A DNA stretch of 64,000 nucleotides, taken from an uncultured Gemmatimonadales bacterium (GTDB lineage Bacteria; Gemmatimonadota; Gemmatimonadetes; Longimicrobiales; RSA9). The stretch lies in assembly GCA_963783305.1 (NCBI GenBank), contig CAWAMW010000016.1, positions 1 through 64,000 of the forward strand. Direction: 5' to 3'. The translations under genes and the position numbers were made by a program. This document shows, in pieces, positions 16,217-21,425 of this stretch (positions are counted from its first letter, which is position 1; each line of letters starts with the position of its first letter). Under the pieces are notes generated by a model, which worked only from the letters and a program-made list of their open reading frames with translations, was not told the origin of the DNA and did no database searches.

Positions 16217-16774
16217 ATGAGCAGACTACTTGCACTCAGCATGGCCCTTGTCCTTCCTTTCGCGGTGACGGCATGTGGCGACGATTCCACCGGCCCTGAT
16301 GACCAGGGCACGGGCACGTTCAGCGCGACCGTCTCCGGCGACGTCAGCGACAACTTCAGTGGCGAGGCGTTCTTCGGGGAGGGCACCGACCCGGACACCG
16401 GCGAGACGGGTTGGATCCTGTGGCTCACGACGTCGGAATCCGAGACCACCGGAAAGGCCGTCTACTTCGTTCGCGAGGGCAGCCGCCCCGGAACAGGGAC
16501 CCACTCGCTGGCCAACATGGAGAACGACGAATTGCAGCCGGGCGTCATCGGAGCGATGATGATCGATTACGAGTCGGAGTCCTTCAGCGGTGTCTTCGTC
16601 TCGACGGGCGGGTCGCTCGTGCTCAACGAGTCGGGCAATGATCGGATGAAGGGCTCGTTTACGATCCAGGCTACCGGGTTCACCGTGGAGGCTGGTGCGC
16701 CTGTTGAGGCCAGCGTCACGATCACGGGCCAGTTCGACGGGATCGGCGGGGACGTCGCCTACCCGGGGATCTAG
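16217..16774 (+). CDS. Hypothetical beta-rich lipoprotein
   Basis: AGGAG RBS; signal peptide with VTAC-GDDSTGP lipobox. Confidence 0.8.
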   Translation: MSRLLALSMALVLPFAVTACGDDSTGPDDQGTGTFSATVSGDVSDNFSGEAFFGEGTDPDTGETGWILWLTTSESETTGKAVYFVREGSRPGTGTHSLANMENDELQPGVIGAMMIDYESESFSGVFVSTGGSLVLNESGNDRMKGSFTIQATGFTVEAGAPVEASVTITGQFDGIGGDVAYPGI

Positions 16775-16791
16775 GTCGAAGCCCAGAAGTT

Positions 16792-16831
16792 GAGCGCCCC
16801 GGGGTCGGACTGACTACGGGGCGCTCTTTTT
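16792..16831 (+). terminator. Intrinsic terminator
   Basis: GAGCGCCCCG (16792-16801) / CGGGGCGCTC (16817-16826) stem followed by T5. Confidence 0.8.
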
Positions 16832-16914
16832 CCACAGAAGAGCGTGGAGAACCGTGGATACGCGTGGAAAACCGGGAGTGAACGTGTGGGTAACCGCGGG
16901 TTTGGTGTGGATTG
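16828..16914. promoter_or_regulatory. Cluster of DnaA-box-like 9-mers
   Basis: TTTTCCACA 16828 (fits TTWTNCACA exactly); opposite orientation CGTGGAGAA 16843, CGTGGATAC 16853, CGTGGAAAA 16863, TGTGGGTAA 16885, TGTGGATTG 16906. Confidence 0.6.
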
Positions 16915-17047
16915 AAGGTGTTACAACCGTCCATGTTGCTGGTACGTGGGAAGATGCGGAGTCGGGAGGATGAGAGGTTTGGTGATCGTGGCCACAAATG
17001 GTCATAACCGTTTACGCCCAAACGACTTACGCCGATAGTCAAAACTC

Positions 17048-17077
17048 TTGACCCGCACCCCCCGAAACCGGTATCAT
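17048..17077 (+). promoter_or_regulatory. Sigma70-type promoter
   Basis: TTGACC (17048-17053), 18 bp, TATCAT (17072-17077), with an A-rich stretch upstream. Confidence 0.65.
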
Positions 17078-17083
17078 TGGGTC

Positions 17084-17372
17084 AGACGTCAACGGGACCG
17101 CGACAGCAAGCCCGCGGACGTCGCCTCCGGAAACGACGGTTTTCGCGAGGCTGCTCACCCGGGGTTCGGACTTGGAGTGAGCCGGCTGCGAGGTCACTGG
17201 CCGCAGTCGATGCCCCTGGCCGGGGGCGCCCCGAGCCGCAGGTCGCGCGGCGGAGGGAGAAGAGAAATCGATCCAGGCGAAGCCCGCAGGGGTGAGCCAC
17301 CGAACACGACGGATCGCGTCTCGCCAGTAGCCAGGGCCCCCGTTTCCGGTTCGCCGGAGACGGGGGTTCTTG
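17084..17372 (+). ncRNA. Candidate structured ncRNA (~290 nt), family not recognised
   Basis: Bounded by a promoter and a terminator; back-to-back hairpins; no credible ORF. Confidence 0.55.
17333..17372 (+). terminator. Terminator hairpin with TTCG tetraloop
   Basis: 17-bp stem, 17333-17349 with 17354-17370 (3 G-U pairs), loop TTCG, ending in TTCTT. Confidence 0.7.
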
Positions 17373-17714
17373 CGTTCACTGCAGATGATCTCACGCCGGA
17401 GATGAACGCGCCCGTGTATGTCGTCCTCGGCGCGGTCCGCTGCCGAGGGAGCCGCTCGGCGCGTTCGGCCGGCTGCCTGCCACGGGGAGGAGCGGGATCG
17501 GCTGGGTACTATAGACACCCTTCGGAGCAGGATCATCGTTCCAGCCTTGGAGAGAAGCAGCGAAGCAGGTTGCGAAACAGCGAAGGGGGCCTGGGCGACG
17601 CTCGGAAGGGGGTTGAGCTGCAGCGCGCCGCGGGTGCATTCGCAGTATGAGTCGATCCTCCGGATCGAGAAAGACGAAGGTACCTCGGCGAGATCCAGCC
17701 GTCATCGCCGGCGG

Positions 17715-17743
17715 TTGACAGGGCGGGTCCATCCGGCCACGCT
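17715..17743 (+). promoter_or_regulatory. Sigma70-type promoter placing +1 on ATG 17750 (leaderless)
   Basis: TTGACA 17715-17720, 17 bp, CACGCT 17738-17743; the ATG begins 7 nt after the -10 and has no SD. Confidence 0.5.
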
Positions 17744-17749
17744 TCTTCC

Positions 17750-18082
17750 ATGATCCCCCGACACCGCCTGCTCAACGCCGCCGTCGCCCTGGCCCTGGGT
17801 GTGGTGCTGAGCGTCCTGACGATGGTCGTGCCCCTGCTGGACATGGGCGCGGCCGGGCCGGGCGTGCGCATCGCCGCGGAGCACGACGGCTCCACGGGCG
17901 CGGTGGATCACGATCACCTGACGTGCATCCAGCACAGCGCCTCCGGCTGGGCCGCGGCGGTGGCGATCGAGCCGCCCGCGGACTTCACGAGGTCCGCGGT
18001 GGCGCCCGCTCCGAGCCACGCCCGGGTCGTCTACCGGCTGCCGGTCCATCTCCCCCGATCCCGGGGCCCACCCTCCGCCTGA
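17750..18082 (+). CDS. DUF2946-like leader protein with C-terminal RGPP arrest-like motif
   Basis: N-terminal hydrophobic helix, HDHLTCIQH metal-ligand cluster, Pro/Ala linker, C-terminus PRSRGPPSA. Confidence 0.75.
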   Translation: MIPRHRLLNAAVALALGVVLSVLTMVVPLLDMGAAGPGVRIAAEHDGSTGAVDHDHLTCIQHSASGWAAAVAIEPPADFTRSAVAPAPSHARVVYRLPVHLPRSRGPPSA

Positions 18083-18149
18083 TCCTTTTCGTGCCACGCC
18101 GGCCCCCAGCGGGACCCGGCGACAGGATCAATCAACAGCGGAGGGACCC

Positions 18150-19511
18150 TTGAGCCTCATTCGTTCGCGGCGCGGACGCGCCGCATCCGTCATCCTCACC
18201 GTGGCGGCAGTGCTCGCCGTCGGCGCCGTACCCGCGGGAGCGCAGACGCCCACCAGCGTGGACTCGCTGCGCCGCGAGGTGGGCCGGCTCCAGGTCCAGG
18301 TGGACAGCCTGGTGCGGCTCGTGATGCGGCAGTCGCAGGGCGCGGCGGCGGAGCGCGCCCAGGACACGATCCCGGCCGACCCGCTCGCCGCCCTCCGTGC
18401 CGCAGCGGCGGCCGCGGCGGGTGAGGGCGCCGGTGAAGCGACCGCGCCGGACACGGCCAGTCAGGAGGCCACGAACTTCGTCGGCCGTCAGCGGAACCTG
18501 CAGGCGCTGAACCCGGAGATCACCGTCACTGGGAACCTCTTCGCGGCGGCGGACCTGGATGACCCGGGCGAGGACAACTTCATCCCTCGCGAGTTCGAGC
18601 TTTCATTCCAGTCCAGCCTGGACCCCTACTCCCGGGCGAAGATCTTTATCGGCCACCACGTTCCGGGTGCGGAGCTGGAGCCGTTCCCCGGGGGTGGCGC
18701 AGAAGAGGAGCACAGCGGCCTCCAGCTGGAGGAGGGGTACATCGAGTGGCTCGCGCTGCCGGGCGGGCTGAACGTGATGCTGGGGAAGTTCCGACAGAAG
18801 TTCGGTCAGCTCAACCGCTGGCACCCGCACGCGCTCCCCGCGCAGACGCTGCCGCTGCCGTACACGGCGTTCTTCGGGGAGGAGGGGCTGGTGCAGTCGG
18901 GGGTGTCGGTGCACTGGCTGGTCCCGCGGTCGGGAATGGGGACGTGGGAGCTGTGGACGGAAGTGACGCGCAGCGGAAACGAGCGGCTCTTCGGCTCCTC
19001 GACGCGGCCGTCGGTGCTGGCTCATCTGAACGGCTTCTGGGAGCTGAGCCGCTCGACCTATTTCGAGCTCGGGCTCACCGGGCTCGCGGGTCCCGACATG
19101 ACGGGCGGTGACGCGTTCGCCACGCAGGTCGCCGGCGCCGACTTCACCGTCAGCTGGCGACCGCCCGAGCTCGGTCGATACCGCGAAGTCACGCTCCGCG
19201 GAGGCGCCGTCTACGGCTCGCTCGCACCGGAGGTGGTCGACCCCGGCGGCGCGTTCGGCGCGTTCGCGATCGGAGAGATGAAGCTGGGTCAGCGCTGGAC
19301 GCTGGGCGGCCGTTACGACTACACGCAGAATCCGCTGATGCCCGACGAATCGGCGTGGCTCGCCGCGCCCATGCTCACGTGGTGGCAGAGCGAGTGGGTC
19401 CGACTACGGGCGGAGCTCGATTTCCTGGACCAGGGCGATGGCGAGCTGCGGAAGCTGCTCGTCTTCCAGACGACGTTCGCGATGGGCCCCCACAAGCACG
19501 AAACGTACTGA
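18150..19511 (+). CDS. Secreted, probable outer-membrane beta-barrel associated with metal uptake
   Basis: Signal peptide, coiled coil, LNPEITVTG, GKFRQKFGQLNRWHPH, amphipathic strands, C-terminal GPHKHETY; TTG start with GGAGG SD. Confidence 0.75.
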   Translation: MSLIRSRRGRAASVILTVAAVLAVGAVPAGAQTPTSVDSLRREVGRLQVQVDSLVRLVMRQSQGAAAERAQDTIPADPLAALRAAAAAAAGEGAGEATAPDTASQEATNFVGRQRNLQALNPEITVTGNLFAAADLDDPGEDNFIPREFELSFQSSLDPYSRAKIFIGHHVPGAELEPFPGGGAEEEHSGLQLEEGYIEWLALPGGLNVMLGKFRQKFGQLNRWHPHALPAQTLPLPYTAFFGEEGLVQSGVSVHWLVPRSGMGTWELWTEVTRSGNERLFGSSTRPSVLAHLNGFWELSRSTYFELGLTGLAGPDMTGGDAFATQVAGADFTVSWRPPELGRYREVTLRGGAVYGSLAPEVVDPGGAFGAFAIGEMKLGQRWTLGGRYDYTQNPLMPDESAWLAAPMLTWWQSEWVRLRAELDFLDQGDGELRKLLVFQTTFAMGPHKHETY

Positions 19512-19527
19512 GGACGGAGACACTGCA

Positions 19528-20571
19528 ATGACACTGCTGAACACACTGCTCGCCTTCATCCTGGCCGCGGTCGGGGGACCCGGCTCCGCGCCGGCCGCGG
19601 CGCCCGTCCGCGTGGTGGCCACGCTCCCCGTGTACGCCGAGATCGCGAAGGAGATCGGCGGCGACGCCGTGGAGGTCGCGTCCATCGCGGACCCGGCCGA
19701 GGACGCCCATTTCGTGCGACCGAAGCCCAGCTTCGCGCTCATGATCCGGCGCGCGGACGTCTTCATCACCACGGGCCTGGACCTGGAGCTGTGGGTCCCG
19801 GCGCTGCTGGACAAGGCCGGGAACTCGAAGGTGGCCGAGGGGGGGAAGGGCTACATCACGGCCTATCCGAACATCGAGCTGCGCGACGTCCCCTCGTCCA
19901 CCGACCGCTCCGAGGGCGACATCCACATCTACGGCAACCCCCACGTGTTCACCGACCCGCTGAACATCATCCAGGTCGCGAAGAACATCACCACCGGGCT
20001 GACGCGGGTGGCGCCGTCGGAGGCGAAACGGTTCGAGGCCAACCTGGCGTCCTTCACCGACAGGATCTACCGCAAGCTGTACGGGGATCGGCTCGTGCAG
20101 ATGATGGGGGGCGAGACGCTGGCGACGCTGGACGCGCAGGGTCGCCTGATCCCGTTCCTCGAGGAGCGGACGTTCGAGGGCCGGCCGCTCATGAGCTTCC
20201 TCGGCGGCTGGCATGCCACCGCGGCGGCGTTCCGCGGCCAGCAGGTGGTCTGCTACCACAAGAACTGGGCGTACTTCGAGAACCGGTTCGCCCTGACGTG
20301 CGTGGACTACGTGGAGGCGAAGCCCGGTATCCCGCCGACCCCCGGCCACGTGGGCGACCTGATCCAGCTGATGAAGACGAAGGACATCCACGTGCTGCTC
20401 GCCGCGAACTACTTCGGCCGCACCAAGGTCGAGGCCGTCGCGCGGCGCGGGAACGCCACCGCCGTAATCGTCCCGCTCCAGCCGGGGAGCGATGCCGTTC
20501 CCACCTACATCGACGTGGTGGACGCGTGGGTGAACGGGCTCGCCGCCGCGTTCCGGGGGGGCGCGCGATGA
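19528..20571 (+). CDS. ZnuA/TroA-family metal ABC substrate-binding protein
   Basis: VVATLP, EDAHF..PKPS, GLDLE.W, GNPHVFTDP, EAKPGIPPTPGH. Confidence 0.92.
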   Translation: MTLLNTLLAFILAAVGGPGSAPAAAPVRVVATLPVYAEIAKEIGGDAVEVASIADPAEDAHFVRPKPSFALMIRRADVFITTGLDLELWVPALLDKAGNSKVAEGGKGYITAYPNIELRDVPSSTDRSEGDIHIYGNPHVFTDPLNIIQVAKNITTGLTRVAPSEAKRFEANLASFTDRIYRKLYGDRLVQMMGGETLATLDAQGRLIPFLEERTFEGRPLMSFLGGWHATAAAFRGQQVVCYHKNWAYFENRFALTCVDYVEAKPGIPPTPGHVGDLIQLMKTKDIHVLLAANYFGRTKVEAVARRGNATAVIVPLQPGSDAVPTYIDVVDAWVNGLAAAFRGGAR

Positions 20572-21425
20572 TCGACCTGATCCTCGCCCCCGCGGCGGTG
20601 GGGCTGATCATCGTCGCGATGAACGCCTACTTCGGGCTCCACATCATCCGGCGCGGCGTCATCTTCGTGGACCTGGCGTTCGCGCAGATCGCCGCCCTCG
20701 GCACCACCGTGGGGATGCTGCTGGGGCTCCACGCGGGCACCGCCGGCTCGTGGGGCTTCACCTTCCTGTTCACGGTGATCGGCGCGGCGCTCTTCAGCCT
20801 GACGCGGATGGAGGACTCCGAGGTGCCGCAGGAAGCGATCATCGGCATCGCCTACGTGGTGGCCTCCGCCGCCGTCATCCTGCTCAGCAGCTTCAGCGCC
20901 GAGGGCGCGGAGCACGTTAAGGAAACACTCACCGGGTCGCTCATATGGGCGACCTGGTCCGCCGCCGCCATTGTCGGCCTCGCCTACCTCGCCATCGGGG
21001 TGTTCCACTACTTCACGCGGAAGAGGATGAAGGCCATCACGTTCGCGCCGGAGACGGCCCGGAACCTCCGTCTCTGGGATTTCATCTTCTACCTCACGTT
21101 CGGCATCGCCATCACGTTCAGCGTGACGCTGGCCGGGGTGCTGCTCATCTTCAGCACCCTCGTGATCCCGGCCACCATCGCGTTCCTGTTCACGCCGCGC
21201 TTCAACCGCGCGCTGGGGCTGGCCTGGCTGAGCGGCGCGCTGGCGCTGATCGTGGGGCTGTGGGCGTCGGTGGCGTGGGACGTCACCACGGGCCCGCTGC
21301 TGGTGGTCTCCTTTGGCGCCGCGCTGGTGGTGGCGTTCATCATCCGGGCCTTCACCGGTGGCAGCACGCGCGGCGCGCCGGGGGGGCGCAACCTGGATCC
21401 GGGGCCGGTGATCCGGGAGCACTGA
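20568..21425 (+). CDS. ZnuB-like metal ABC permease
   Basis: GLHIIRRGVIFVDLAFAQIAALG, GVLLIFSTLVIPA; multiple TM helices; ATGA-coupled to the SBP gene. Confidence 0.9.
   Translation: MIDLILAPAAVGLIIVAMNAYFGLHIIRRGVIFVDLAFAQIAALGTTVGMLLGLHAGTAGSWGFTFLFTVIGAALFSLTRMEDSEVPQEAIIGIAYVVASAAVILLSSFSAEGAEHVKETLTGSLIWATWSAAAIVGLAYLAIGVFHYFTRKRMKAITFAPETARNLRLWDFIFYLTFGIAITFSVTLAGVLLIFSTLVIPATIAFLFTPRFNRALGLAWLSGALALIVGLWASVAWDVTTGPLLVVSFGAALVVAFIIRAFTGGSTRGAPGGRNLDPGPVIREH

Follow-up and report, generated by a model that had tools for sequence, protein, structure and literature searches.

Large structured ncRNA classes are described as rare in bacteria (PMC10898510). OLE, ROOL and GOLLD are presented as large, ornate bacterial ncRNAs of unknown biochemical function that use kissing loops and form RNA-only oligomers (PMC12286853). 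In that account, by Kretsch et al., the palindrome in loop L9.3 of OLE switches among GGCC, GAUC and AGCU, and this switching backed an intermolecular bridge seen by cryo-EM, the adjacent bases being unable to pair within one chain. The raiA motif RNA is described as a pseudoknotted, stand-alone monomer of ~200–250 nt and unknown function, reported to be very abundant, with a closing P1, nested junctions, two pseudoknots and one locus per genome (PMC12968392). A third group comprises 6S RNA and the actinobacterial RNAs Ms1 and CoRP (PMC11077062, PMC9130861, PMC4191392). Among DNA elements, E. coli datA is described as combining DnaA boxes with an IHF site by a tRNA operon, and transcription may regulate it (PMC10380432).

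The locus analyzed here lies in a window of 64,000 nt (positions 1–64,000, forward strand, of contig CAWAMW010000016.1 in assembly GCA_963783305.1; the genome is labelled G000) and is predicted to encode an RNA of ~290 nt. At that length the RNA is about half the size of OLE, ROOL and GOLLD or less, and it differs from them further in having no Rfam match, in its tandem-hairpin layout and in the phylum that carries it. Predicted kissing loops, and a loop palindrome that changes letters among relatives much as in OLE L9.3, recall these RNAs, and an oligomer of the new RNA is predicted. Where raiA has nested junctions, the new RNA has six side-by-side hairpins with three pseudoknots, in up to five copies per genome, and does not match the Rfam raiA model. 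With 6S, Ms1 and CoRP it shares the character of a stand-alone, apparently abundant RNA, in a lineage with no detected 6S; it differs in lacking a rod-and-bubble promoter mimic and any Rfam match, and its binding to RNA polymerase would be hypothetical. The upstream module, with DnaA-type boxes in a cluster and a putative, weakly IHF-like site next to a gene of stable-RNA type, recalls datA and DARS2 of E. coli, whereas here the module lies upstream of a promoter, is duplicated along with the RNA gene and is confined to one clade. By the tests run, the new RNA is not OLE, ROOL, GOLLD, raiA, 6S or Ms1.

The RNA gene and its family

A preliminary description of the locus had proposed a stand-alone structured RNA, possibly lineage-specific, with its own promoter and terminator. 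The promoter TTGACC-18-TATCAT, all five of the stems and the GATCC/GGATC domain that it listed were recovered in place (Table 1), and the promoter was the sole match in positions 16400–18000, where shuffles expect 0.1. A promoter-like pair was likewise found upstream of 67 of 96 family members (shuffle mean 3.1, maximum 10). The description had not seen the three pseudoknots, the palindromic loop, the second copy or the upstream DnaA-box module, and its list of hairpins with almost no linker had omitted P6. Its purine-rich strand exists but was misquoted; the correct tract is GGAGGGAGAAGAGAAA at 17252–17267, and part of it is predicted to be paired rather than single-stranded (GAGA/TCTC, 68% of cells paired). 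The inner GA loop to which it had drawn attention in the P7 domain is unconserved across the family. The 17-bp TTCG hairpin that it had called a terminator is present, conserved and covarying, but its U-tract is weak and a terminator scan did not report it.

Table 1. Positions of the predicted features of the locus in the 64,000-nt window.
Feature	Position	Strand	Remark
DnaA-box-like array	16828..16872	.	one + strand box facing reverse boxes, 10-bp steps; start of clade-specific upstream module
Conserved GTG(G/A)A..GTTACA element	16907..16926	+	module consensus; 121–123 bp before -35 box
Imperfect inverted TAA..TT..AA..TTA element	17005..17029	.	weak likeness to IHF site
Sigma70-type promoter TTGACC-18-TATCAT	17048..17077	+	promoter scan
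Predicted ~290-nt RNA	17084..17372	+	both ends inferred from promoter and terminator
P1	17085..17122	+	loop GCGAC 17100–17104 = pseudoknot 1, 5' side
P2	17123..17151	+	GACG tetraloop 17135–17138; enlarged or replaced in some clades
P3	17153..17182	+	loop GTTCGG 17164–17169 = pseudoknot 2, 5' side
P4	17183..17209	+	best-conserved loop, AGGT..CTGG (conservation partly built in by the search patterns used to collect members); ACTGGC 17196–17201 = pseudoknot 3, 5' side
P5	17212..17227	+	palindromic loop GGCC 17218–17221; predicted intermolecular kissing site
P6	17235..17251	+	loop GTCGC 17242–17246 = pseudoknot 1, 3' side (loop-loop kiss with P1)
P7 domain, length variable	17262..17322	+	CCGAAC 17300–17305 = pseudoknot 2, 3' side
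GCCAGT	17323..17328	+	pseudoknot 3, 3' side
17-bp terminator-like hairpin, TTCG loop, weak U-tract	17333..17372 (hairpin 17333–17370)	+	

With Rfam 15, no match at or above the gathering threshold was obtained in the window or in 20 homologous loci, the models including OLE, ROOL, GOLLD, raiA, Ms1 and known ribozymes. At E ≤ 10 the window gave eight matches at chance level, of which the best by E-value scored 26.6 bits against a cut-off of 100 and lay on the opposite strand. ARAGORN returned nothing in the window. The remark that the element bears no RNase P, tmRNA, SRP or tRNA signature was borne out, in that no such model matched in the window and the genuine RNase P, tmRNA and SRP RNA genes of G000 lie at other sites. 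A conserved small ORF was not suggested, ATG-initiated ORFs of at least 30 codons occurring in 19 of 97 members in the sense and 29 of 97 in the antisense direction.

Within the window's order, a covariance model built from 94 members identified carriers in each of three families, namely in 18 of 23 genomes (a count that takes in the unpublished genome G024), 13 of 24 and 2 of 23, with at most five copies per genome. In a sample of the phylum the model further identified 6 of 15 genomes of f5, a family that belongs to the same class but to a different order. No copy was detected in any of the 36 genomes of family f4 or the 19 from six other families, nor in 21 of 23 of family f3; about 40 candidates were scored per genome, so these negatives mean "not found" and not "absent". 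The f4 and f3 counts argue that the RNA is not universal in the class. A loose pattern run across 61 f4 genomes gave matches at control level and so carries no information either way.

A pattern scan of GTDB produced 62 loci, many of them overlapping individually numbered loci, and 48 were confirmed by the models. By record title, the source of the taxon names used here, 46 of the 48 are Gemmatimonadota, Longimicrobiales or similar and two are "bacterium" only. The remaining 14 failed the models, among them all 13 titled as other phyla. A partial metagenome scan (6 of 64 parts) added 24 new members out of 121 pattern loci. The most divergent clade traces to f5, and genome searches placed the clade with AATT in loop 5 in that family. 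Among viral contigs, 134 pattern loci (14 and 120, the second scan covering 7 of 64 parts) yielded none that was confirmed, and no match occurred in 50,697 phage or 72,556 plasmid records. Within the class, members thus come from three families belonging to the window's order and from a single family belonging to a different one; no other phylum, phage or plasmid among those searched yielded any, which agrees with the guess of lineage restriction.

Relatives carry one to five copies per genome, and G000 itself has a second copy, on contig C2, among unrelated neighbour genes. Sequence comparison thereby establishes a family with multiple copies. With no Rfam match, covarying helices and contigs from RNA libraries over the element (see below), the proposal of a stand-alone structured RNA is supported, and we infer that the element is a real, conserved ncRNA class of Gemmatimonadota with no description found in the literature searched. 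It adds another large structured ncRNA class, one whose structural model is clear and whose carriers belong to an environmental phylum that has been little studied.

Predicted fold and pairing between molecules

Single-sequence folding of the window sequence gave z = -4.2 with the terminator included and only -2.3 without it. Because the body alone scores so modestly, this is weak evidence and the case is carried by covariation. In a model-fitted alignment of 94 sequences, which was fitted to the structure being tested, both partners had changed in all 43 pairs of P1–P6, and 92% of cells were paired. The observed covariation was reached by 0 of 500 shuffles, although kin are not independent and shuffle counts are therefore not probabilities. 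An unfitted MAFFT alignment of 27 sequences showed double changes at 38 of 53 predicted pairs. The covariation among homologs by which the preliminary description had proposed to judge the helices is thus present.

Three long-range pseudoknots were identified, joining L1 with L6 (pk1), L3 with the J7 strand in the P7 domain (pk2) and L4 with the 3' tail (pk3). Pooled, their 18 pairs were formed in 96.9% of cells, with double changes at 7 of 18, compared with 26–39% of cells for slid controls. For pk1 alone, 100% of cells were paired, and double changes occurred at two pairs in 13 and 8 of 27 sequences. When each sequence was matched with its own partner strand or with that of another member (n = 92, i.e. 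the 94 rows minus two that are truncated or contain N), pairing was seen in 73 versus 22 for pk1, 50 versus 28 for pk2 and 81 versus 44 for pk3. The weakest is pk2, which with G-U pairs allowed gave 62 versus a cross-matched mean of 53.6 and maximum of 62, and so is not clearly above control. Divergent members retain the pairings with changed letters, such as GACGG in loop 1 with CCGTC in loop 6 in f5, or CTTGA in loop 3 with TTCAAG in family f2. In one genus of f2 (g40, L391–L395) the 5' structure is longer by ~100 nt and loop 6 resembles a tetraloop instead of forming the kissing loop, so that pk1 appears to be lost. Overall, the comparisons establish the helices and three long-range pairings, and the predicted fold of the RNA is a compact core with three pseudoknots.

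Such a compact multi-pseudoknot fold with invariant unpaired bases would also suit a ribozyme, in which the three pseudoknots pack a catalytic core round the invariant loop-4 bases; large structured bacterial RNAs are said often to have ancient catalytic roles (PMC10898510). That invariance is partly imposed by the search patterns, however, and family f2 varies in loop 4. Together with the lack of any match to an Rfam ribozyme and of an evident substrate, guide or partner gene among the flanks, this makes a ribozyme distinctly improbable.

Of 92 members, 62 have a Watson-Crick palindrome of at least 4 nt in loop 5, where shuffles average 31.6 and reach at most 46 in 2000; after clustering at 70% the count is 24 of 41, compared with 11.6 in shuffles. 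The core is GGCC in 32 members, GATC in 9, AGCT in 9 and AATT in 8, with four singletons; one GATC row has a sequence that also occurs in the unpublished genome G051, and its removal shifts the counts by one. On a tree made without that loop (90 rows) the core changes at least 12 times, which establishes that the palindrome switches. The remaining 30 of 92 members have no palindrome, many of them having short tetraloop-like loops. Control loops also exceeded the same shuffle (P7, 33 of 87 versus 20.3; terminator, 29 of 88 versus 16.5), showing this null to be lenient, but by less than loop 5 did and largely through CACG/ACGT-type loops. By analogy with OLE L9.3, the RNA likely pairs with copies of itself through loop 5. 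Given the 30 members without a palindrome and the two control loops above shuffle, dimerization stays a prediction. Since the RNA measures only ~290 nt, its proposed oligomer depends on a single loop and the palindrome is naturally present in some variants and absent from others, it is a direct target for cryo-EM and mass photometry.

The reading that we favour, at about even confidence, is a stand-alone ~290-nt ncRNA gene whose product has a triple-pseudoknot core, self-pairs through the P5 loop and acts in trans as an abundant scaffold or protein sink, the last role being assigned as for OLE-, ROOL- and raiA-type RNAs. Transcription would run from the sigma70-type promoter to the terminal hairpin. 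The 3' half (L6, J7 and tail) would then capture loops 1, 3 and 4 of the 5' half, so that the fold would close only once the transcript is complete. Loop 5 would kiss loop 5 of a second molecule, as a 4-nt palindrome inside one loop cannot self-pair, and the conserved unpaired bases of loop 4 would serve as a binding or tertiary surface.

Upstream module and genomic neighbours

A module of ~200 bp precedes the promoter in 43 of the 85 loci with enough flanking sequence, all of them in one well-supported clade of the RNA tree that includes the window. DnaA-type boxes, defined as at most one mismatch to TTWTnCACA (consensus from PMC10380432), number 2.2 per module versus 0.10 in shuffles (42 modules), with three in the window copy. 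The spacing from the GTTACA element to the -35 box is 121–123 bp in 33 of 41 modules. A putative IHF-like site, weakly resembling the IHF consensus, was present with at most two mismatches in 27 of 42 modules versus 26% of shuffles. Within G000 the module was found only at the two RNA genes, both of which were in the training set. Tandem copies each have their own upstream module; at L401 (G017:C2:1337500–1344500) there are three such copies, two of them ~840 bp apart. In the window, a GC-rich hairpin with a T-run at the end of the upstream gene (16793–16832) overlaps the first DnaA-type box.

Boxes like those of the module also occur in the gap downstream of dnaA in G000. This segment (G000:C2:890820–891090), which besides the DnaA-type boxes has an AT-rich part containing short repeats, is likely oriC. 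None of 26 promoter regions of tRNA, tmRNA and RNase P genes in G000 contained the inverted element, and the repeats upstream of mraZ are unlike the module. An inverted TAA..TTG..CAA..TTA element does occur weakly elsewhere in G000 without the rest of the module (E 0.09–0.5; C17 515819–515874, 252440–252486 and 37272–37317, and C16:349249–349300). In the L398 and L113 clades, which lack the DnaA module, other short repeats of CCGAA/TTCGG type precede the promoter and suggest a different regulator.

For the multi-copy clade, the favoured trans-acting RNA would have its output tied to the growth or replication state by DnaA bound to the upstream boxes. The same arrangement could be read the other way round, the locus being mainly a DnaA control site of datA/DARS type whose RNA, or its transcription, helps to regulate replication initiation. 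The box array, the fixed spacing and the weak IHF-like site before the promoter in about half of the loci fit such a site, as does the restriction of the module to the two RNA genes within G000. The RNA is conserved in the 42 of 85 loci from which the module is missing, however, and the DnaA sites are predicted from sequence and the IHF match is weak; we regard a primary role as a control site as improbable.

The two G000 copies are 97.4% identical in the RNA and promoter, 59.7% in the module and 52–56% in the flanks. Because they differ far more in the module, which is near the level of the flanks, than in the RNA, we infer that gene conversion of an old duplicate fits them better than a fresh jump, and such conversion would keep both copies alike. 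A near-identical second copy, one to five copies per genome, tandem copies and highly varied neighbours are what a non-autonomous mobile element or an orphan guide RNA of the IS110 bridge, OMEGA or retron type might leave. The copies include an untranscribed upstream module, however, which RNA-based copying would not move, and no target-site duplication is apparent. The 149 flanking proteins included one IS110 transposase, convergent with the RNA, and no RT, TnpB, IscB or Cas protein. Divergent clades hold fixed sites, after a lipoyl-ligase gene in eight loci and after an M28/PDZ peptidase gene in seven. Taken with the viral, phage and plasmid searches above, these observations make a mobile or guide origin very improbable.

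The same 149 nearest flanking proteins (nearest gene within ~1.5 kb per side) share no common family, and no oapA-like partner gene was found among them; the conserved oapA neighbour of OLE thus has no counterpart at the new RNA, nor has a tRNA array. These data argue against an enzyme-associated guide. Independence of the RNA from its neighbours is thereby established among the loci compared. The order of promoter, structured RNA and terminator could be that of a cis-acting leader, either a riboswitch or an attenuator, in which the gene that follows is controlled by the terminal hairpin, and 36 of 78 called downstream genes do lie on the same strand. The other 42 are convergent, and the same-strand genes are unrelated to one another, which makes a cis-regulator unlikely; with the next likely gene in the window beginning ~380 bases on, we consider a leader extremely improbable. 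Two further features were noted near the copies or in G000. A short His-rich ORF followed by genes resembling a metal-uptake ABC system occupies 17750–21425 of the window and is not linked to the RNA in other genomes, and 19 tRNA genes form a one-strand array at G000:C2:112817–115285, unlinked to either RNA copy.

6S RNA in the phylum and presence in RNA libraries

Outside the window's class, the Rfam 6S model exceeded its cut-off in all 6 genomes (6 of 6) from two families and scored weakly in 2 of 9 from a third. Across 61 genomes of the window's class it gave one weak partial match, and genome-wide in G000 it gave none. All eight 6S loci that were examined (L411–L418) adjoin zapA, whereas in G000 the gap after zapA (G000:C7:191590–191740) is ~110 nt and holds no 6S-like rod. 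Canonical 6S may therefore have been lost class-wide.

This distribution makes functional replacement a serious rival to the trans-acting scaffold or sink, namely that the RNA is a structurally new RNA polymerase-binding RNA that took over from a lost 6S, comparable with Ms1 and CoRP in Actinobacteria. New structured RNAs that bind the polymerase are on record (PMC11077062). The RNA has neither a long rod nor a central bubble and its fold is unlike 6S, however, whereas a structural relationship to 6S is described for Ms1 (PMC9130861). The 36 genomes of f4 have neither 6S nor the RNA by the searches used, and a divergent 6S can escape the Rfam model. We regard replacement as the main rival, and as unlikely. 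Rather more speculative, and quite unlikely, is a combined reading in which an abundant, self-assembling RNA of a new triple-pseudoknot class, its dose set by DnaA and copy number, would couple the transcription machinery to the state of replication where canonical 6S has been lost. Two concrete functional leads, of a kind that most orphan RNAs lack, come from the DnaA-box module and from the apparent 6S loss in the class.

Among RNA libraries, sequence words of the stretch recur in 24 runs belonging to 14 studies, always amounting to less than half. In all eight of the 24 runs that were examined (six studies), contigs cover the RNA body. The pieces span 17094–17368, one of them stopping at the terminal hairpin, and one 80-nt contig has zero differences from the window at a depth of 8,496. 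Peak summed depth was 9e4–2e6 in five runs and 13–187 in three; these depths are of contigs summed over many organisms in runs picked for holding the stretch, and give no strand, ends or level. Flank bins had depths of 0–20, which is uninformative since the flanks of relatives diverge. The transcript that had been anticipated is accordingly matched as far as coverage goes, the contigs showing neither its strand nor its ends. The family is present in RNA libraries, and the data fit high abundance without measuring it. If the summed depths reflect real abundance, the RNA may explain a noticeable part of the reads left unassigned in metatranscriptomes of soil, roots and ice. In one run (X12), a contig of depth 5,151 returns within the RNA from window position 17280 to 17123, a backward jump of 158 bases; this is probably an assembly or template-switch chimera, the alternative being a circular or ligated form.
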